In this document: positions 759 through 60,335 of the stretch, piece by piece
How positions within the stretch are numbered: the stretch's first letter is position 1
Layout of the letters: every line of letters begins with the position of its first letter
Notes under the pieces: model-generated
Database searches by the model: none
Told to the model about the DNA's origin: nothing
What the model saw: the letters and a program-made list of their open reading frames with translations, nothing else
Translations under genes and position numbers: made by a program
Source: a virus
Virus record (IMG/VR): IMGVR_UViG_3300045988_084534
Coordinates: 37,276 to 101,275 of that record
Strand: one strand, 5' to 3'
Length of the DNA stretch: 64,000 nucleotides

Positions 759-3700
759 CGAAGCCCGCGAACAATCCATCAAAGCAGAATTTGAGGATTT
801 TGCAAATCGCGTATTATCCAAAGAAGTAGTAGCAGGATTTTATGATGCTACTGAAGCGGCATTACAATTTATTAACACAGATTTTGGTGCAGCCACCACG
901 AGAATCATAGGCACAACAACGGCTATTACAAGTCTGGTTGGTATTCTTGGCACAATGGGCGCAAAATTGGTGCTTGTTGGTAAACAGCTACAGGCGGCTG
1001 GTGCGGCTAATGGCGTTCTTGGATTCCTTACTACGCCTAAGACACTGCTTATTATAGCTGGCGTGGTAGCCGCTATTGCTGGCTTAGTTGAGGTTATTAA
1101 GTCGGTTGAAAAAGCTCAATATGAGGCAAATCATGCTTTTGAGATAGCAAATCAAAAATTATCTGAGACACAAAACGAAATTAAGTCTACTGAGGAAAAT
1201 TTACAAAGTTATAAAAATTCTCTTAAAGAACTTAATGATGTGGCTGAAAAAGATAGAGGTCTTGCTTGGCAACAAGAACGTGCTGAAATTGAATTAAATA
1301 TTCAAAGTACAGAGACATACTTAAAGCTGTTAGAGCAAAAAGCCAAGTTAGAAGCGCAAACGGCGTATGAATCTAAGTTGCCAACTGGTTATACACTTGC
1401 AGGCAACCTAAACGAAAATAAATATAAGACCGAAGATTATTTTGGCGACTATTTTGCACCTGGCAATTCCCAAGTACAGTTGTCTATGGAGCAAGCTGGT
1501 GTTATAACGGCTGTGTATGACAGCGAATACGAGGCATTATCTAACATCGTTTTAGCACTTGCAAATGCTACAGATGAGCGCTATAGATACATCGAGGCAG
1601 AAGATTTAGCTCAACTTGAAGGCAAATCAACTGAAGAACAAATTCAGATTATGACTGATTTGTTAGGTAATTTGGGAATCAAGTTGTCCGCTACCACTGA
1701 AACGGCTACGCAATCTTTTGCCGCAATGGATAATCTTGCCAATAAATCTGGAGAACTTTCAACTAAAGAGAAAGATTTGGCGCAACGATACTTAGACCTG
1801 TATCGAAATATTGTTATCCTTGGTGTGGCAACCGATGAACAAACAAACAGCTATATTCAACTATTGGCTAGAATGTCTGCATTTGACTTGGAGACGGCTA
1901 GCACAACAGAAAAGATTAGTTGGTTAGCAAATGCTTTTGGTATAACAGCTAGTGAATCTGCAAATCTATTATATGCAACTGGTCAATTATCTCTGATTCA
2001 GGCTCAAGCTGCACGCGACATGGTACAACTTTCTAACGGTATGTGGGCTGCTAAATCTGCGTGTAAACAACTTGACGATGGGACATGGGAATTAAAAGAA
2101 AATTTAGACGAAACCGACGATTCAGCAGAAGACTTGTCCGATTCTCTCAATGCCTATCAAAAATCCATCAAGCAAGTAACCGATGATGAAAAAGCATTTG
2201 TCAATTCGCTATTTGATATGAATGGCAATTTGACCAAAGCGGCTCAACAAGCTCTTACCGCTGATAGTGCTATGGCGAGTTATGCACAGAAAATCCTAGA
2301 GGCTCAACAAGCACAAACGCAGTCTGATTATTCTAATTTAATACTTCAAATTGGTAAGGTTGGAGAAGCAGCTTACGTTAGTAGTAATAGATTACAGTCT
2401 TTGATTGCTAGCATTCCGGGCGTTACTTCTAGTACATGGTCTGCTGAAAATCAGGAATCTGTGATGCGCCGATTGTTTAACAAGCAAACGGGCAAGAACT
2501 GGAAACAAGACGCGGCAGCATATAGTGAATGGTCATCGAATTATTTGTTAAATTTGAGCCAAAAAAAATATGAAGAACGCTTAAAAGAGCTACAAAATCA
2601 AGCAAATGCTATATCTTCATTTGTTCCATCTACAGGTGGCGGAGGTGGCTCATCTTCTACAACATCTCAAAAATCCCCGGCTCAAATTGCGGCAGAAGCG
2701 GCAACGAAAGCGGCTAAGTATAGACTAGATGCCTTACAAGATGAGCTTGATGCGCTCAACGATGAAAAATCGGCACTAGAAGATGAAATTCAGCGAATCC
2801 AAGATGAGGTCAAGGCTGAATATCAGGCTGAGATTGATATTCTCAACGATAAGAAAGAGGCTATCCAAGAGGCATATGAGGCATGGGAAGAAGATGCTGA
2901 TGCTGTACTTGATAGACTCAAAGCAGAAAAGGACGCTATTCAAGCAGTCATTGACGCTATTGACAAAGAGAAAGAACAACTTGAAGCGGCGACCGCCTAT
3001 GCTACTGAATATGCCTCTAGGCAGATTGATGAAATTGACGCGCGGCTAGATGAGCTAGATGCCCGTGAAGCCGAAATCAATAAAAAATATGATGACGAGC
3101 TAGACAAGCTAAAAGCGACCAATAAAGAGCTGGACAAGCAAATTGAGCGCGAGAAGCTGCTACAAAATCTAGCATCTGCTAAAAATAAGAAAAAGCGGGT
3201 ATATTCGGCGCAACAGGGTTATATCCTAGTTGATGATATTGCCGCAATTTCTAAAGCACAGGCAGAGCTTGATAAATTTGACCGTCAGCAAAAACAATCT
3301 CTTGAGAAACAGGAGATTGAAAATAAACGCAAACAAGAGCTGTTAGCATCTGGTGTCGAGGCTGAACGCGCGGCATTAGAAGAGCAGAAAAAGCTCTGGG
3401 AAGAATATAGTAAAAAATGGTCTAGTATTGTTTCTGACTATGAGTTCAAGCAAAATAGACTAGCTTATATTCAGCGATATGGTAAGGCTATTGAGCAACA
3501 GAACTGGCAACAGCGCAATAGAACGGTTGACCAAGCTACCAAAGAATACGCTGATATTATGGCGCGGCTATTGGCTGAACAAGAGCGGATGGCGGCTAAA
3601 GAGGCTGAAATTGCGGCTCAAGAGGCGGCAATGGACGAAGCCAGAATTGCCAATCAGAAAGCAACTGCCGCTATTGAAAAGCAAATCAGCGACCTACAAG

Positions 3701-10928: not shown

Positions 10929-11137
10929 ATGACAAATATTGAATTGGCAAAAAAGCACGAAGATGTAGCTAAGAAATATAAGACAGTATATATGTGGGGC
11001 TGTTTTGGTCATCCAGTGACCGAGGCGATTATCAGAGAAAAGGCGGCGCAATATCCTAGTTGGTATACAGCGGCAAAGCAGAGAGAACTAAGAAAGCTGG
11101 TCGGCAAGGGATATTTTGCATTTGACTGTGTAAATCT
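10929..11137 (+). CDS. NlpC/P60-type cell-wall peptidase (lysin), exon 1
   Basis: Ends in the ...GKGYFAFDCVNL catalytic-Cys motif. The downstream stop at 11157-11159 lies in the intron. The 5' splice site is at U11137 or alternatively U11131; both keep the frame. Confidence 0.75.
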
Positions 11138-12809
11138 CACTGACTTTAGTGCGCAATAATAGTAATGTTATTGTGTGTTTATTTGAATTGCTGGAAACCC
11201 CTTAGAGACATATCAACCACAACGTAGCTATGAAATATGGGCAAGCGTGATGGTTTGAAAATGATATAGATTGGGCAATCAGCAGCGAAGCTCCGAATAG
11301 GAGAACGTTCAACGACTATCCTGTTAGAGGGAGTACAACGCAAACGATTGGCGTTGGAAGCGGATAAGACCCTATTATATAGGGTGATGATATAGTCTCA
11401 TCTCATATGAAAGTATGAGGAAAATTGTTTGAGTTCACTTATAATACTATAAAAGCAAGGAGGTGGGTATGTGGACAAAAACAGACAACATTACAAGATG
11501 TCATTGCTTAAATGGTGTGAATCGAATAATAGTAATTTGGTTTACGAATGGGATGAAGCAAATGAAATGGCTATGAACGAGATTGGGTCAAGTAGTGGAA
11601 TAAAAGTGAAATGGATATGCTCTAGGTGTGGTTTTCATTTTGAGCAAAGACCTTCAGATAGGGTGAGGGGGCATGGTTGTCCAAAGTGTGCTAGAAAATC
11701 TCATTCAAGCGTCCCCGAAACGATATGTTATTTGGCTATCAAGCAGTATTTTTCAGATGCGATACATGGATATAAAACCGATTGGCTTGGACGTAAAGAA
11801 TTGGACATCTTTATCCCATCTATTAGTGTTGGCATTGAATATGATGGAAATTCTTGGCATAATAAATCCAGAAAACGAACAGATAATGACAAGACGTGGC
11901 TATGCGCCCAGCATAATATCTTGATCTATCGTATAAGAGAAAACGGATGCGAACCAATGGACGACGAGTCAAATAATATTTATTACAAGCCAAGCAAACA
12001 ATACAATGCTCTTAAGTATTCTATTATAGATGTACTAATGAGGCTTGGACATAATAATGTTGCTTTTGATGACTGGGAGTCGCTTATTAATAAGTCTAAA
12101 TGTGAATTTTCCAGTATTGAAAGAAGTAAATCTATTGGTGTAATAAATCCAGAATTTAGTGCAAAATGGGATTACGACAAAAATTATCCTTTAACGCCAT
12201 ATGATATATTGGCTCATTCCAATCATAAAGTATGGTTAAGATGTGATAAAGGACATTTGTATAAAAGAGCGCCAAACTATTCAAATCAAAAAGAATGCCC
12301 CATATGTATAAATAAAATTGTGCTTGAGGGCTATAATGATTTGGCAACAATAAGACCAGATTTGGCGTTGGATTGGAATTATGATAGAAATGGCGAATTA
12401 AAGCCAACGGAAATAACGTTCGGTTCTAATCGACGTATTTGGTGGAAATGCCATGCTTGCGGAAACGAATTTCAATCATCTCCAAATGCTAGAAAAGATA
12501 ATATGGGACATTGTTCAAAATGTGTGTTCACCAATGGCAATGAAACATTATCAAAAAACAAAGCGGTTAATAATAGTCTTGCTGAGTTTTATCCAGAAAT
12601 CGCAAAAGAATGGGATTATAACAATAATGAAAGAACGCCAGACAATGTTGCAAGGATGTCTGGATTGGAAGCGTGGTGGATTTGTTCAAACGGTCATTCT
12701 TGGAAGGCTAGTGTTCATAGTCGAACGCATGATGGGAAAAAGTGTCCATATTGTAAACAAACTCAAACAATAAACTGCTAGGCGTAGTGAACCTAGTTGA
12801 AAGAAAATG
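11138..12809 (+). mobile_element. Group I intron (td-like) carrying a homing-endonuclease ORF near its 3' end
   Basis: The core GUUCAACGACUAUCCUGUUAGAGGGAGUAC...GGAAGCGG...GAUGAUAUAGUCUCAUCUCAUAUGAAAGUAUGAGG matches the td-like cores of the other introns. The 5' block CCCUUAGAGACAUAUCAACC...GAUUGGGCAAUCAG matches the TMP intron. The tail UAGUGAAC...AAAAUG ends in G12809. Candidate P1 is UGUGU/GCGCA and candidate P10 is CUUUA/UAAAG. Confidence 0.75.
11471..12781 (+). CDS. Intron-encoded putative homing endonuclease: PD-(D/E)XK (Vsr/DUF559-like) core plus four treble-clef zinc-ribbon repeats
   Basis: GTG start after AAGGAGGTG. The nuclease core is ELDIFIPSISVGIEYDGNSWHN. There are four repeats of W(D/N)Y(D/N).N....P......S...(V/I)WW.C..GH.(W/F)......R......CP.C. 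Confidence 0.7.
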   Translation: MDKNRQHYKMSLLKWCESNNSNLVYEWDEANEMAMNEIGSSSGIKVKWICSRCGFHFEQRPSDRVRGHGCPKCARKSHSSVPETICYLAIKQYFSDAIHGYKTDWLGRKELDIFIPSISVGIEYDGNSWHNKSRKRTDNDKTWLCAQHNILIYRIRENGCEPMDDESNNIYYKPSKQYNALKYSIIDVLMRLGHNNVAFDDWESLINKSKCEFSSIERSKSIGVINPEFSAKWDYDKNYPLTPYDILAHSNHKVWLRCDKGHLYKRAPNYSNQKECPICINKIVLEGYNDLATIRPDLALDWNYDRNGELKPTEITFGSNRRIWWKCHACGNEFQSSPNARKDNMGHCSKCVFTNGNETLSKNKAVNNSLAEFYPEIAKEWDYNNNERTPDNVARMSGLEAWWICSNGHSWKASVHSRTHDGKKCPYCKQTQTINC

Positions 12810-52837: not shown

Positions 52838-53041
52838 TTAATTTTTTTCTATTGATTCACCAACAATTTCAAATAAATGCGGGAACTCAGGAAGCAATAT
52901 AATATTTCGTCCGAGTAGAGTAAGACGCAAAACCTTCATCCACGCTTCGGCATCTTTACTCCTTATACCGTCTTTGAATCTAACAATATATGTGCCACCA
53001 TCTTGTAGAGATTTAACGGTTCTAATTTCTTCATTATTCAT
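52838..53041 (-). CDS. Hypothetical small protein
   Basis: ATGA overlap with the upstream stop; starts MNNEEIRTV. Confidence 0.45.
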   Translation of the reverse strand: MNNEEIRTVKSLQDGGTYIVRFKDGIRSKDAEAWMKVLRLTLLGRNIILLPEFPHLFEIVGESIEKN

Positions 53042-54438
53042 ATGAATACCTTCTGATTTTGCTGAGTACATATTACTCTACTTGATTTACCTTGTTTAAT
53101 TAGCTCATCTTGTAGAGTATTGGCAAACTCTACTTTACTTGAAAATTCACTATGTACTAAGCATAGTTTATCATAATCTATATTCTGGTAATATTGCATT
53201 AGTTGGTTATAATTAGCATGAGATGAAAATGTATTTAAACAATATATCTGAGCATTGTTCTGAATCATCTCACCATCAAGCATGATTTCTTTTGCACCAT
53301 GCTTAATTTCATATGCAAGCGTATTAGGACTAGCATATCCAGAGAATAGCACAGCATTGCGGCTATTAGGCAAGATATATTTGAGATGCGCCAAAGCCCG
53401 TCCAGCGTTCAGCATGCCGCTACTAGCCACTATAATGGCTCGTTCATTTGATTGCTGAATAGCTTGACTTTCTTCCCACGATTCAATTAGCCGTAGATTC
53501 AACTTATCTTCATAATCTAGTTGCTCTGACCATGCCCTATAGATACGACAAGCAAGCGGCGAATCAAGATAAACAGGAATCATCTGTCCATCAATCTTGT
53601 GCTCTGTAGATCGGGTGCGCCATAGAACATCAAGAATATCCTCTACACGTTGTAGACTAAAAGCTGGCATCAGTATACGATTATATTGGCATATAGCGGC
53701 ATTGATAATCTGTTCATCATACCATCGGTCTTTCTTCATGCTATAGCATCTAGTCTGGTCACTATATGTGCATTCTCCAACCACAACATTACATCTTGGC
53801 AATGACTCGATTGGTGGTACAGATACGCTCTTGGCTTCTGTATTGAAATCACCAGTAAAACCAATTCGCTTGATGCTGTAGCCCTGTTTAATTTCCAACA
53901 CAGCTTGAGCCGAATGGATGATATGTCCAGCATGATAATATGTCAGCTTTGCACCGCCTACAATGGTCGTAGGAACTCCAAACGGTACTTCAACAATCCA
54001 TTGCATTACTTTATCAATATCAGTCTCAGTAGCCAATGACGGCGCTTTGATTCCATGCTTATTCTGCATCTTTAAGCTATCCTGCGCCATGATTTTAATG
54101 CAATCATCCATCATTATCTTGAGAATAGGAATTGAGCCTTGAGGGATATAAATATATGCTTGCATACCCATAGCAACAGCGGCAAGCAACCCAAGACAAT
54201 GGTCAGCGTGTAGATGGGATATGATAACGCCATGCACCGTCTTTGGCTTGATTTTCTTCATTTGGTCACGATTGGCGCGATAATCAGCTACTAGATTATT
54301 GGTCTGGATTAGACCCATATCAACAGCTAATTTGATATTATCGAATCGAACAATCGTGCATGAGCCAGTTACAGATGCAGAATTACCGCCAATAAAATGC
54401 AGATATGGCTTGGATGTACCAGATGATTTAGCTGACAT
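53038..54438 (-). CDS. Metallo-beta-lactamase / beta-CASP family nuclease (RNase J/CPSF-like)
   Basis: HLHADHCLG (HxHxDH), YYHAGH, and the beta-CASP C-terminal FSSHANYNQL. The start at MSAKSS follows GAGGAG. Confidence 0.7.
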   Translation of the reverse strand: MSAKSSGTSKPYLHFIGGNSASVTGSCTIVRFDNIKLAVDMGLIQTNNLVADYRANRDQMKKIKPKTVHGVIISHLHADHCLGLLAAVAMGMQAYIYIPQGSIPILKIMMDDCIKIMAQDSLKMQNKHGIKAPSLATETDIDKVMQWIVEVPFGVPTTIVGGAKLTYYHAGHIIHSAQAVLEIKQGYSIKRIGFTGDFNTEAKSVSVPPIESLPRCNVVVGECTYSDQTRCYSMKKDRWYDEQIINAAICQYNRILMPAFSLQRVEDILDVLWRTRSTEHKIDGQMIPVYLDSPLACRIYRAWSEQLDYEDKLNLRLIESWEESQAIQQSNERAIIVASSGMLNAGRALAHLKYILPNSRNAVLFSGYASPNTLAYEIKHGAKEIMLDGEMIQNNAQIYCLNTFSSHANYNQLMQYYQNIDYDKLCLVHSEFSSKVEFANTLQDELIKQGKSSRVICTQQNQKVFI

Positions 54439-54748
54439 TAGCCGACTCCTCATCCTTTTTACCAGTAGGCATATACGCCCATGCTACTACGTCATCCCAA
54501 TCGCCGCGATTATCTAAGTATGTTCCACTATATTCAGTATGTCTATCTATCATACAAATATCTTGCCATACATCACCGCTTTTACCCAATACTAGAATCT
54601 TTCTATTGTTATCTGGCAATTCACAGTTAAACATATAAAGAGGATATTCATATTCGGCTAAACCCCATTCGGCAAATTCTTCAATTTCTTCCTCAGTAGG
54701 TGGTCTAGTCACAACCTCATGCCATACAATTTTTTCAATCCATTCCAT
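54428..54748 (-). CDS. Hypothetical protein
   Basis: The start MEWIEKIVW follows GGAGGG, with a TAATG overlap with the upstream gene. Confidence 0.45.
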   Translation of the reverse strand: MEWIEKIVWHEVVTRPPTEEEIEEFAEWGLAEYEYPLYMFNCELPDNNRKILVLGKSGDVWQDICMIDRHTEYSGTYLDNRGDWDDVVAWAYMPTGKKDEESANVS

Positions 54749-57685: not shown

Positions 57686-57961
57686 TTACTCATTGATTTC
57701 TGCCTTTAGTGTGCTTGTCGGCTTAAATGTCAGAGCATACTTGGCAGGAACTTCAATGGTTTCACCAGTCTGTGGATTACGAGCCGTTCTTGCATCACGC
57801 AGCTTGGTTGTGAACTTGCCAAAGCCATGAATCACAACATCCTCATGCTGGACTAGGCTATGCTTGATATAGTCAATGAACGTGTCTACGATCTCAGTTG
57901 TGTCCTTAATCGTATTTTCTGTGCTATCTGCCACAAACTTGACGATTTCTTTCTTGGTCAT
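57686..57961 (-). CDS. hup: HU/IHF-family DNA-binding protein
   Basis: MTKKEIV...GFGKFTTKLRDARTARNPQTGETIEVPAKYALTFKP. Confidence 0.85.
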   Translation of the reverse strand: MTKKEIVKFVADSTENTIKDTTEIVDTFIDYIKHSLVQHEDVVIHGFGKFTTKLRDARTARNPQTGETIEVPAKYALTFKPTSTLKAEINE

Positions 57962-58083
57962 AAATTCCTTTTAGTTTCCTTTCAGTTTCTAATAAAATTT
58001 TATTAAAACAAGTCGCAATGTTCATGCGCATATTGACTTGATAATGGTACTGGTTATTATCTATGTACACTCAATTTCATATA

Positions 58084-58335
58084 TCACTTAATACGTTTAG
58101 GACGCTTCCTATTAAGAAACACTTTTCTTCGATTAGACAACCACTTAATCTGTTCTTTAGTCAGTTCCTCACTTAAATCTACAAAACAAACTTTAGGATA
58201 AACACTATTCATCCAATTAGAAAGTTCATAAAGGTCTTTGAATGTTCTAGCAAACTTACCTTTAAATTTCCTATTGAAATGGTCAACTGTACCAATTCTA
58301 ACACAAGTTACTTTAATCATCTTAATCTCCTCCAA
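58084..58335 (-). CDS. Basic small protein
   Basis: GGAGGAG then ATG, directly after the rRNA-like locus; 83 aa. Confidence 0.45.
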   Translation of the reverse strand: MEEIKMIKVTCVRIGTVDHFNRKFKGKFARTFKDLYELSNWMNSVYPKVCFVDLSEELTKEQIKWLSNRRKVFLNRKRPKRIK

Positions 58336-59407
58336 TAAGTCATTTCATCTACACAGTAAGCAGAGGTGTTTACTCTTACTCCTTCGCACATCCTAACAAT
58401 TTGTGCCCCTCGTAATCTAATGATTACACTTTCTCAACCCTCGATTACTCTGACTTACCCAACACCCTCTTATCATTAAGCAAGTTTACATCGTAGTTGT
58501 TGGGTGCCTGAATGACTAGGCATTACATAAGACTCATATTGGGCGTGCTTACTACACTTGATATTGAAATCTAGCCCCTCTGGTGCGGGATAGGGAACTC
58601 GAATCCCTACGCCTTGCGGCAACAGATTTTAAGTCTATCGTGGCTGCCATTACACCAATCCCGCATATTCAATCTCAAGCCGACTTCCTACCTCATAGCT
58701 ATTTCTAGCATCGGCTCGTGAATGATGTTTACATATGATGTGCTATTACGCCAAAAAATCCATGTCTCTAAGGCATATCTCAACATACAACATAATGCTT
58801 AGAGAGACAAATTTGTATGCCAACAGTCGCTAACTGCTCTTGAGAACAAGTGGATATTGGACTACCATTTCTGGACGGGGCGACCGATTTATCCTTATGC
58901 AAAGCACTATGTTCATCCACTGTTAGTGACTCGCGATTGGGCTTCCTCCAATTTAACTGTCACCATTGCCACGATTTACTCTTTAGACGATGGCTGCTTC
59001 TAAGCCAACGTTTCATATGCTTGAATAATATCCTTATATCACCTTTGCCGTTATGTTTTTGTCCTCATGCTAACGGAACACGCTCAGGCGCGACCCCAAT
59101 TCTCTATTAAGCTATCTGCCGCTTCTCAAACTCTGCACAGACCCGCTTCACAGGTGTGATATAGATTTGACGGTTATCTTCAAATCCGTTCGGATATTAT
59201 ATTGATACAGTATTTGTCTTTGTACTTCAGACACTCCCACCGCTGTATCACCGGGTTCGAGCCGTTTCTTTACTCTAGCTGGCTCTATACACTAGCTCTA
59301 AATGATGGCTGTTCATCTCACTCCATTTACTACTGCTCCTGTACTCCCCAGTCCGGCGTTCCATGGATAACGTCATCTGTGGGCTTCGTAGCACCATCAT
59401 CTTTACA
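58336..59407 (-). ncRNA. Large non-coding locus collinear with 23S rRNA domain II (5' segment 58665-59407, embedded tRNA-Leu, 3' segment 58336-58580)
   Basis: There is no credible - strand ORF. A consensus promoter lies at 59414-59442. Blocks matching E. coli 23S occur in 23S order, including an exact GUUGGCUUAGAAGCAGCCAUC (58989-59009) and GCGUAAUAGC (58742-58751). See the findings for the full block list. The ends are approximate. Confidence 0.6.
58581..58664 (-). tRNA. tRNA-Leu (anticodon UAA), type II, CCA encoded
   Basis: Acceptor stem GCGGGAU/AUCCCGC, 3-bp D stem, anticodon arm AUAGA-CUUAAAA-UCUGU, variable arm GCC-GCAA-GGC, T arm AGGGA-UUCGAGU-UCCCU, and discriminator A followed by CCA. 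Confidence 0.9.
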
Positions 59408-59413
59408 TTCTCA

Positions 59414-59442
59414 ATTATACCATACTTGATTTTATTTGTCAA
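59414..59442 (-). promoter_or_regulatory. Consensus sigma-70 promoter with extended -10, driving the rRNA-like locus
   Basis: On the - strand: cTTGACAaataaaatcaagtaTGgTATAAT (17-nt spacer). Confidence 0.75.
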
Positions 59443-59584
59443 GTGTTAAATTGCATTTATTTAATGTTTTTTCAATGGCTTCATCAAGTTCTTTTTCTAC
59501 TTTACGCCAGTATAGATACACAATCAACATTCCAACTGCAACGCCAGCCGCAAATGAGCCTAGACAAGATAATAAAATAATCAT
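59432..59584 (-). CDS. Possible 50-aa single-TM protein (not in the ORF track)
   Basis: MIILLSCLGSFAAGVAVGMLIVYLYWRKVEKELDEAIEKTLNKCNLTLDK. No clear RBS. Its end overlaps the promoter -35. Confidence 0.3.
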   Translation of the reverse strand: MIILLSCLGSFAAGVAVGMLIVYLYWRKVEKELDEAIEKTLNKCNLTLDK

Positions 59585-59645
59585 ACACTAATAATCAATA
59601 AATTTTCCTAAACATCTAACCCTACAACTTACCTTACTTAATCAA

Positions 59646-59882
59646 CTAATCTGAATTTTCTTCATTATTAGTCAATGATTTCTTTGCTAAACGAGCTGAT
59701 TTTAGCCGTTCAGCCGCAGCTTGTTTCTGTTCATCTGTCATTGAGCGGGTACGCCCTGATTTGCCAAATCTCAAGTCATAAAGCGGACAAGACTTAATTG
59801 GACAATGCTTTACTTCGTTTGCGGAATCGCCTGAACATTGTAAACAATATTGTCGTATTCGTTTTAGCGGAGATATTTCCAT
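59646..59882 (-). CDS. Zinc-finger small basic protein
   Basis: GAGGTG then ATG. Sequence contains CLQCSGDSANEVKHCPIKSCPLYDLRFG. Confidence 0.5.
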   Translation of the reverse strand: MEISPLKRIRQYCLQCSGDSANEVKHCPIKSCPLYDLRFGKSGRTRSMTDEQKQAAAERLKSARLAKKSLTNNEENSD

Positions 59883-59913
59883 ATTATCACCTCGTTAGTT
59901 TATATTTTGTTCA

Positions 59914-60003
59914 TGGTCTTCCCGGCTGGGTACGATCCAGCACATGCCTTGTGAGGGTCTTACTCTTATAAGGAGTAGGCTTTTCCAATTAAGCTACGGG
60001 AAG
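59914..60003 (-). tRNA. Atypical tRNA, anticodon UAU (Ile/AUA) with a 19-nt variable region and a non-canonical T-loop
   Basis: Acceptor stem CUUCCCG/CGGGAAG followed by ACCA, D arm GCUU-AAUUGGAA-AAGC, anticodon arm UACUC-CUUAUAA-GAGUA, variable region AGACCCUCACAAGGCAUGU, and T arm GCUGG-AUCGUAC-CCAGC. Confidence 0.6.
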
Positions 60004-60101
60004 ATATTTGAGCCTTTTATCGTCATGCTCAGGACTATATTCTAGGAGGTTCACAATGAAGAACTGTAATTGAGATTACCCAATTTCTCAATCACATCTG
60101 T

Positions 60102-60130
60102 ATTATACCATATGAGATGCTATTTGTCAA
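60102..60130 (-). promoter_or_regulatory. Sigma-70-type promoter (TTGACA-17-TATAAT) upstream of the atypical tRNA
   Basis: On the - strand: cTTGACAaatagcatctcatatggTATAAT. Confidence 0.7.
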
Positions 60131-60335
60131 GAATTATTTTTTCAAATTTTTCTCGCCATTCATCGCGCCAGATATTGATTGCATCCATATCCCCAGATCG
60201 CTCATATTCGTAGCAACAAGCTCCAACGGCTTGAAAGGCATAAGATTTGACATCAAAATAATCATTGCACATAGTTGCCGTTTGGTATGTTTCTTCAAGG
60301 AACTTGATTAATTTCTTATCCATAATATTTACCAT
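60120..60335 (-). CDS. Hypothetical small protein
   Basis: 71-aa ORF downstream of promoter 60355-60383. Confidence 0.45.
   Translation of the reverse strand: MVNIMDKKLIKFLEETYQTATMCNDYFDVKSYAFQAVGACCYEYERSGDMDAINIWRDEWREKFEKIILDK

Follow-up and report, generated by a model that had tools for sequence, protein, structure and literature searches.

The locus analyzed here occupies positions 58336-59442 on the minus strand (1.1 kb) of a stretch of 64,000 nucleotides (nt) taken from the viral record IMGVR_UViG_3300045988_084534, hereafter called the window. It is a mosaic composed of a promoter, clade-specific structured RNA modules, a tRNA-Leu(UAA), and a discrete 290-nt element (58731-59020, minus strand), which we regard with high confidence as a selected structural mimic of the GTPase-associated center (GAC) domain of 23S rRNA and as a member of a phage RNA family. 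The rest of the 1.1-kb locus, comprising the clade-specific RNA modules, the tRNA, and a 5' untranslated region (UTR), is unrelated to this element. An earlier, sequence-only reading of the locus had described the entire transcript as a mimic of 23S rRNA domain II; what stands of this description is a selected mimic of the GAC (23S 1051-1108) contained in 290 nt, whereas its extension to the whole 1.1 kb does not. The same reading had overlooked the tRNA-Leu(UAA), as well as the location of both GAC pieces inside one discrete insertion.

In bacterial ribosomes, the GAC is a docking platform for uL11, EF-G, EF-Tu, and RelA signaling, and its RNA half, the 58-nt domain 23S 1051-1108, is the binding site of uL11. 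The element reproduces this whole L11-binding domain, interrupted between positions 1090 and 1091 by a domain of 226 nt. It is closed by a helix resembling helix 42 (H42), formed by eight base pairs between the 5' strand GCAUAUGA (59020-59013) and the 3' strand UCAUAUGU (58738-58731), which has no sequence relation to 23S rRNA and covaries in the family. The helix 43 (H43) mimic with the A1067 loop (58987-59011; 23S 1057-1081) contains the 21-mer GTTGGCTTAGAAGCAGCCATC (59009-58989), identical to E. coli 23S 1059-1079, and is followed by the junction and the 5' strand of helix 44 (H44) (CUAAAGAGU, 58978-58986; 23S 1082-1090), whose 1082-1086 pair covaries in the family. Taken together, positions 59011-58978 read as helix 43 with the 1067 loop and then nUAAAGAGU, the arrangement found in the other members of the family. 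The inner domain (58752-58977, 226 nt) opens with AAAUC, the pairing partner of GAUUU, and has UUUG at its 3' end. The helix 44 loop and 3' strand, including the A1095 loop (GCGUAAUAGCACA, 58739-58751; 23S 1091-1103), contain the 10-mer GCGTAATAGC (58751-58742), which is identical to 23S 1091-1100 and collinear with the 21-mer, and 11/12 identities to 23S 1091-1102 can be counted by eye (GCGUAAUAGCAC versus GCGUAAUAGCUC in E. coli). The insertion pattern of the family, i.e., AAAUC/GAUUU, UUUG, and GCGUAAUAGCAC, is present at 58977-58740.

The E. coli rrlH gene served as the reference for comparisons with 23S rRNA. A blastn search of the locus against it returned one significant alignment (59009-58980 versus 23S 1059-1088, 28/30 identities, E 3.5e-8), and the exact identity of the two loop sequences claimed in the sequence-only reading was confirmed. 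The suggestion that the C-G pair at 1058-1080 is a compensatory change also proved correct, as this pair covaries in the family as UA, GC, AU, and CG. The inner domain of the window copy shows no similarity to 23S rRNA and no Rfam match, and it carries compensatory changes between the window copy and the copies of three related phage loci (L018, L021, and L026). RNAalifold applied to these four window-type copies misfolds helix 44 and was excluded for the GAC part. A covariance model of the family, R1, matched the window at 58954-59026 (32.9 bits, E 4e-4) and at 58722-58794 (19.3 bits, E 0.39, not significant alone), the match being split in two because the inner domain is long; the seed of R1 comprised 53 members including the window copy, which makes this test partly circular and its E-values rough. 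The tRNA-Leu lies on the same strand, 76 nt downstream of the element.

A phage family of GAC-like elements

The family was delimited by a census based on exact-word keys in viral contigs. The pattern GGCTTAGAAGCAGCCA-N(215-245)-GCGTAATAGC was found in nine unrelated contigs with the same architecture, keys for a single end gave at least 119 matches for each end, and at least 126 distinct elements were counted. Among the matches listed, 89 were new viral loci with the exact helix 43 19-mer, of which only six were contiguous, real 23S rRNA. The interrupted architecture is seen outright in 51 of those 89 loci, and most of the others were recovered by R1, which gave 53-79 bits on members found with the helix 43 key whose 3' motif had escaped the pattern filter (the model also matches real 23S GACs at about 40 bits). 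From 5' to 3', the consensus consists of the closing-helix 5' strand, GGAAUGUU, GGCUUAGAAGCAGCCAUC, nUnUAAAGAGU, a stem, the inner domain, the partner of the stem, UUUG, GCGUAAUAGCACACC, and the closing-helix 3' strand. The core, measured from the start of helix 43 to the end of helix 44, is 99-410 nt long, of which the inner domain accounts for 41-369 nt. Inner domains belong to at least three unrelated types and have no motif common to all; one recurrent type (..CACCCC-hairpin-GGUAAGG..) was found in 21 members. Compared with any part of 23S rRNA, the inner domains gave a median z of -0.05, and those of 17 member loci had no match in Rfam.

The family is carried almost only by phages, usually in or next to tRNA arrays and always in the orientation of the tRNAs. 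Among the at least 126 elements, the nearest tRNA lies on the same strand in all 87 loci with a tRNA in view, at a distance of no more than 30 nt in 41 and no more than 300 nt in 67 of these 87. The member loci are tRNA arrays, and the array of locus L102 also carries a full-length tmRNA (1829-2161, minus strand, 102.5 bits). No recurrent protein family was found beside the elements, the largest cluster comprising 12 of 126 loci. The hosts of the phages carrying the family belong to several phyla. A scan of 185,579 species, with one genome per species, yielded only five copies, all with the free-standing architecture, four of them in metagenome-assembled genomes and one in Flintibacter muris; over the approximately 125 nt compared, the latter copy appears to be identical to that of viral contig L058; in the same scan, no copy of the interrupted architecture was found inside a real 23S rRNA gene.

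The element is also present, unannotated, in cultured phages deposited in GenBank. The copy of Serratia phage BF (KY630187, 285218-285454) occupies the interval separating BF_0402 from BF_0403, and that of Pseudomonas phage Astolliot (OM982621, 78752-78920) precedes tRNA-Met by 14 nt. Matches to both ends were likewise obtained for seven Erwinia phages, among them Kaldavass and the pEa_SNUABM series, as well as for Xanthomonas phage XbC2 and Pseudomonas phage UNO-G1W1; the helix 43 end alone was matched in Xanthomonas XacN1, Cronobacter GAP32, Pseudomonas Milchi and pf16, Aeromonas 4_4572, and Paenibacillus Pd_22F. Family-specific features, namely GAGU at 1087-1090, A at 1101, and UUUG before G1091, are retained independently of the host. 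In Serratia phage BF, for instance, the copy reads AUAAUGAGU where the 23S rRNA of its enterobacterial host, judged from those of E. coli and the enterobacterial L257, should read UUAAAGAAA. Since the nucleotides typical of the family differ from host rRNA, the elements form an independent lineage and are not recent captures.

Evidence for selection on the structure comes from covariation. The outer parts of 53 members were aligned without gaps, in an alignment not fitted to the structure, and scored against the GAC secondary structure together with the base stem of the insert (24 pairs). Paired cells amounted to 92.1%, compared with 64.7% in shuffles, and the covariation score was 0.693 versus 0.169 in shuffles (0/500 reached it), with a maximum of 0.19 when the partners were slid. 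Double changes were found in 18 of the 24 pairs, comprising all nine pairs of the closing helix, all five pairs of the insert base stem, two basal pairs of helix 43 (1057-1081 and 1058-1080), 1062-1076 in its upper stem, and 1082-1086, which occurs as UA, CG, and AU.

As the search keys fix part of the sequence, the conservation of each end was read in the set found via the other end. In helix 43, U1060, G1063, U1066, C1072, C1075, and A1077 are 100% conserved and G1071 98%, with variation at A1067 (85%), G1068 (78%), and A1070 (81%). In helix 44, read in the set found via helix 43 only, positions 1091-1095 and 1098-1102 are 97-100% conserved (A1095, 98%), and A1096 (65%) and U1097 (33%) are variable. 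The family-specific A1101 and UUUG are 92-100% conserved, and A1088 is invariant in the alignment of the 53 members (A1). The tertiary fold of the GAC is presumably built by U1060, A1088, G1071, C1072, and the pairs G1091-C1100 and C1092-G1099, as we take it from crystal structures of the L11-RNA complex. Of these, U1060, G1071, C1072, and both pairs are 97-100% conserved in the family, whereas the loop tips A1067, A1096, and U1097 vary, a pattern which fits recognition of the fold and recognition by uL11 better than recognition of the loop tips. Because the shell is near-invariant and the inner domain occurs in at least three unrelated types, we place the shared function of the family in the shell.

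The surrounding locus and the insertion site

The locus starts with a strong, extended -10 promoter of the sigma-70 type, TTGACA-17-TGgTATAAT (59414-59442, minus strand), which matches the consensus at 12/12 positions and carries the TG extension, as had been claimed. Perfect promoters of the same type (TTGACA-17-TGnTATAAT) also lie at 60383-60355 and 60130-60102 on the minus strand, three within 1 kb, and the sequence of 59414-59442 recurs within related loci, which suggests a repeated early-promoter cassette. No terminator-like sites were found between 57600 and 60400. Within the locus there is no open reading frame (ORF) longer than 86 amino acids (aa), in agreement with the earlier statement that it holds no credible ORF.

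To place the element in its context, we used 26 related phage loci (L001-L026) from IMG/VR, found via the upstream 78-aa ORF; the downstream 83-aa ORF used as a search handle gave no relatives, and blastn and megablast found no homology to the whole locus in cultured phages. The product of the upstream ORF (59646-59882, minus strand) is a Cys-rich, zinc-ribbon-like protein with no Pfam match, whose C-terminus carries a KQAAAERL..AR motif also found in many unrelated viral contigs. Comparison of the loci using blastn and MAFFT revealed that most relatives join q277-464 straight to q746-817, without the GAC element, and that an insertion at approximately 58736-59016, which holds both GAC pieces, is common only to the window, L018, L021, and L026. 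The insertion site is the single-stranded linker of a structured RNA that is specific to the clade, unrelated to the element, and located ahead of the tRNA; this linker lies between a module termed domain 1 (59025-59200), closed by AUAAUAUCC / GGAUAUUAU, and a hairpin termed domain 2 (58673-58721), which ends 8 nt upstream of the tRNA. A mobile element flanked by a target-site duplication was considered for this 281-nt indel and rejected, because the apparent repeat, CATATG, is palindromic and equals the two strands of the closing helix.

The clade-specific RNA of approximately 240 nt (58673-59200 minus the insertion) is shared in L003-L025 and consists of domain 1 and the domain 2 hairpin. 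RNAalifold run on 13 relatives (alignment A2) predicted 61 pairs in these two domains, 15 of them with compensatory changes, and no Rfam match was found for this RNA. It always abuts a tRNA, and this tRNA is swapped among phages (Leu-CAA, Leu-UAA, Ile-UAU, or Val-UAC), with domain 2 conserved in all relatives whichever tRNA comes next. A signature word of the clade-specific RNA is confined to this phage clade and five other contigs.

Two further modules also come and go among the relatives. The 5' module, termed domain 0 (59301-59413), is conserved in part of the related phages (q38-180, 85-99% by blastn in L010, L025, L008, L023, and L020), and a putative closing stem, GAUGAUGGUG / CAGCCAUCAUU, can be read by eye from the sequence. 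A variable segment (59204-59300), which contains the CGAACCCGGUGAU block of the sequence-only reading, was found only in the window, L021, L026, and L020. Downstream of domain 2 lies the type II tRNA-Leu with the anticodon UAA (58581-58664), identified by ARAGORN and scoring 49.4 bits with the Rfam tRNA model. The 3' segment that follows it (58336-58580, 245 nt), in which the last three blocks of the sequence-only reading are located, has no homolog in L001-L026 and no match in Rfam, and is probably the 5' UTR of ORF 58084-58320, which has a GGAGG ribosome-binding site 7 nt upstream of its ATG at 58320. The small ORF downstream of the locus has no match in Pfam.

Elsewhere in the window, Rfam matched only a group I intron and a second tRNA. 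The intron (RF00028; 11122-11419, plus strand) is full length, scores 93.9 bits, and is followed by an ORF (11471-12781) encoding four DUF4379 treble-clef zinc-finger repeats. A tRNA with the anticodon UAU, called as Ile (59914-60003, minus strand), combines a long, type-II-like variable arm with an unusual T-loop (GAUCGUA), and versions of this tRNA, 76-95 nt long, are conserved in nearly all related phages (L001-L026). The ORF at 53038-54453 (minus strand) encodes a beta-CASP/RMMBL metallo-beta-lactamase, i.e., an RNase J/CPSF-like RNA nuclease, which could take part in the processing of phage stable RNAs.

Candidate functions and rival explanations

The close spacing and the orientation shared with tRNAs imply co-transcription and shared processing. 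In our model, the element would be transcribed together with the tRNAs, released as a stable RNA by RNase P and the 3' processing of the neighboring tRNAs, fold as the rRNA domain does, and bind a universally conserved host ligand of the GAC. As no phage protein partner recurs and the hosts are distributed across phyla, this ligand is probably a host component that occurs universally. The obvious candidate is uL11, because its binding site is exactly the 58-nt domain and because conservation follows the fold and not the loop tips. The RNA would most likely serve as a sponge or decoy for this ribosomal protein. Ribosomes poor in uL11 cannot activate RelA (the relC phenotype). By titrating free uL11, the phage RNA would give rise to such ribosomes, and the stringent response would be blunted, or the stalk base otherwise retuned, during infection. 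We consider the chances of the whole chain, from the GAC mimic through the uL11-decoy step, to be evenly balanced. We propose only tentatively, and at a lower probability, that phages of many bacterial phyla express a stand-alone rRNA domain from their tRNA arrays and use it to sequester uL11 or a different ligand of the GAC, thereby disabling RelA-dependent stringent signaling or re-tuning the stalk; the variable inner domain might add lineage-specific functions. The ideas of an L10/L11 decoy and of a toxin decoy, both raised in the sequence-only reading, are the leading hypotheses. Phage tinkering with the stalk would have a precedent in phage-encoded stalk proteins, since bL12 domains are known to be encoded by phages (PMC6375957).

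Several points weigh against the uL11-decoy model. We infer uL11 binding from conservation alone, and the invariance of the key words is partly a product of the exact-word census, for which the sets found via the other end served as a control. The helix 44 insertion, the pairing change at G1089/A1101, and UUUG, all absent from rRNA, could alter the surface seen by uL11 or translation factors. Most cellular uL11 is already bound to ribosomes, which makes the effect of a sponge uncertain. A near-invariant A1095 is equally expected if the decoy were aimed at an enzyme or drug that acts on this loop, and the variable inner domain is left unexplained by a uL11 decoy. Moreover, the window copy has C.A at 1082-1086, compared with C-G in its closest relatives, and one of these relatives (L018) has G in place of A1095 (at about 7070); both substitutions may represent early drift in this subclade.

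In the main alternative, the element could be a decoy or pseudo-substrate for an attacker of the GAC, such as a toxin that modifies or cleaves rRNA, a defense effector, or a thiopeptide, with abundant phage RNA soaking up the attacker so that host ribosomes would stay functional during infection. We regard this as unlikely. Phage tRNAs have been proposed to counter defenses that target tRNAs, and the placement of the element in tRNA arrays would parallel them; the 98% conservation of A1095 in the family is also compatible with such a role. Toxins against exactly this site exist, as Tre23 ADP-ribosylates helix 44 of the GAC at 1095-1098, and the thiopeptides thiostrepton, nosiheptide, and micrococcin bind H43/H44 (PMC8661411). 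However, 1096 and 1097, located within the target window of Tre23, are the most variable positions of helix 44, and A1067 varies too, which is a mild objection. Since the family is found in phages of many phyla, the attacker would have to be just as widespread. Moreover, the genes beside the element include no recurrent companion, and we know of no anti-phage defense directed against the GAC.

A compact GAC shell, stabilized by uL11, could instead be a scaffold that protects or presents the inner domain as the real effector. The inner domain is structured, its base stem covaries, compensatory changes are found among the four window-type copies, and some inner types are recurrent, such as the CACCCC-hairpin-GGUAAGG type of 21 members. 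This explanation is nevertheless doubtful and, in our opinion, distinctly improbable: inner domains ranging from 41 to 369 nt, of unrelated types, with no universal motif and no Rfam match, are hard to reconcile with a function shared by the family, which would have to be placed in its least conserved part, whereas the shell is conserved to the nucleotide.

We find it very unlikely that the inner domain is an intron or intervening sequence whose removal would leave a contiguous or two-piece 58-nt GAC mimic. Every member reads ..GAGU before the insert and ..UUUG before G1091, and the boundaries, GAGU/AAAUC and UUUG/GCG, have U before the 5' splice site and G as the last nucleotide, as in group I introns, which is compatible with splicing and not diagnostic of it. 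Precise removal would produce ..AAAGAGU joined to GCGUAAUAGC.., the sequence of Firmicute 23S rRNA, and a true group I intron is present elsewhere in the window (11122-11419). Nevertheless, Rfam RF00028, which scores 93.9 bits on that intron, finds nothing in the element (E≤10) or in 17 member loci (E≤1), and inserts of 41-80 nt are too short for group I ribozymes. Furthermore, the ends of the insert pair together, G1089, A1101, and UUUG look like a permanent three-way junction, and the genome scan gave only free-standing elements. A group I intron captured with rRNA exon flanks was rejected on the basis of the model result, the 41-nt inserts, the paired ends, and the lack of such inserts in the 23S genes of the scan.

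The proposal that 23S domain II is mimicked in reduced form, or survives as a decayed relic, over the entire 1.1-kb transcript is largely refuted, and we assign it a very low probability. It was built on blocks said to be collinear with approximately 23S 450-1250. The Rfam model of the large subunit (LSU) rRNA (RF02541) had no match in the window at the gathering score and none at E≤10 on 57800-60300 (2.5 kb) or on 58336-59442 alone. Apart from the two GAC pieces, the words shared with rrlH are 7-13 nt long and scattered across 23S rRNA on both strands. Collinear chains of exact words were computed after removal of the GAC element and the tRNA. Against the whole 23S rRNA, the chain reached 111 nt, which is below the shuffle mean (118±12), and against E. 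coli domain II 77 nt versus 53±9, a value reached by 4/300 shuffles, with several of the blocks of the sequence-only reading included. This excess repeats with an enterobacterial 23S rRNA and vanishes (z about 0) against four other, non-enterobacterial 23S sequences; it is mild, and because the blocks had been matched against E. coli words, we read it as most probably chance, amplified by selection on these words. Local alignments of individual modules to 23S rRNA were at shuffle level, including 58336-58580, with 59204-59300 as the sole exception (31.5 versus 24±3 in shuffles, against E. coli 23S 661-707 in the helix 35 region). As the excess of this segment was not reproduced in the same four 23S sequences, its similarity is probably due to chance. 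A candidate second GAC relic at 59311-59288 (13-nt match, E 0.03; 59311-59299 versus 23S 1072-1084) was rejected, as the match at 59311-59299 is the 3' strand of the domain 0 closing stem and therefore probably fortuitous. The locus also contains a tRNA, the pieces of the mosaic vary independently among relatives, domains 1 and 2 have folds of their own supported by covariation, and elsewhere in the family tRNAs or genes adjoin the element directly, without additional rRNA-like sequence.

A recent capture of host rRNA or an assembly chimera, which the stretches of 21 and 10 nt identical to 23S rRNA might suggest, is refuted, as the sequence-only reading had anticipated: the flanks are not 23S rRNA, the closing helix covaries freely, the family nucleotides differ from host rRNA and are kept whatever the host, and more than 100 unrelated phage contigs, as well as complete genomes of cultured phages, share this architecture.

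Comparison with known RNAs and significance

The element resembles the GAC of 23S rRNA (helices 42-44, E. coli 1051-1108) in having the same helices, near-identical 1067 and 1095 loops, the nucleotides which presumably form the tertiary fold, and covariation at 1082-1086. It differs in being free-standing and closed by an arbitrary helix rather than continuing into H42 and domain II, in carrying an insertion of 41-369 nt at 1090/1091 together with the family-specific G1089, U1090, A1101, and UUUG linker, and in being encoded by phages next to tRNAs and not in rrn operons. An arm for recombination with host rrn operons, another idea of the sequence-only reading, is implausible with only 21 and 10 identical bases.

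Extraribosomal RNAs that copy an rRNA binding site of a ribosomal protein are known from the leaders of ribosomal protein mRNAs, such as the rplJL leader bound by L10(L12)4 and the L1 site on the L11-operon mRNA, which compete for the protein with the ribosome. Those leaders act in cis on the cell's own ribosomal protein mRNAs and copy the rRNA site only loosely, whereas the element is a near-exact copy located in phage tRNA arrays and presumably acts in trans as a stable RNA. The genes downstream of the window element are a tRNA and a small ORF, and the Rfam families of ribosomal protein leaders gave no match.

Phages carry tRNAs, tmRNAs, and a few ribosomal proteins, and with phage tRNAs and tmRNA the element shares its niche, orientation, and close spacing, as well as its origin as a piece of the host translation apparatus. 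Unlike these molecules, which can replace their host counterparts, an rRNA domain on its own cannot become part of a ribosome, which leaves a mimic or decoy as the only obvious role. ROOL and GOLLD RNAs are also associated with phages, non-coding, highly structured, and often located next to tRNAs; to our knowledge, they contain no rRNA-like domain. Membership of these classes, as had been suggested, is excluded at the level of the Rfam models, since neither ROOL nor GOLLD matched in the window at the gathering score or at E≤10 on the 2.5-kb region or the 1.1-kb locus alone, and the element differs from them in size and architecture.

The sequence-only reading knew of no described phage mimic of an rRNA domain, and our search likewise found no previous description of a phage GAC, L11, or rRNA mimic in Rfam 15, GenBank annotation, or the full-text literature searched. 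A 2023 catalogue of 10,006 viral candidate RNAs mentions neither rRNA overlap nor an rRNA-like motif, and the element may be among its unnamed entries. Phage genes that encode free-standing rRNA domain mimics therefore appear to be undescribed.

Thiopeptides and at least one ADP-ribosylating toxin act on the GAC, and a viral decoy of this site would point to a new way of manipulating host translation or stress signaling. The presence of carriers among cultured phages of Serratia, Erwinia, Pseudomonas, Xanthomonas, Cronobacter, Aeromonas, and Paenibacillus makes the hypothesis testable at once. For RNA engineering, the family provides a natural set of GAC variants as well as a site in helix 44 where insertions are tolerated. 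The finding is narrower than first claimed, comprising 290 nt and not 1.1 kb, and far more general, as it concerns a widespread phage RNA family. If our interpretation is true, this family would be the first case of viral mimicry of an rRNA domain and a new class of anti-host RNA.

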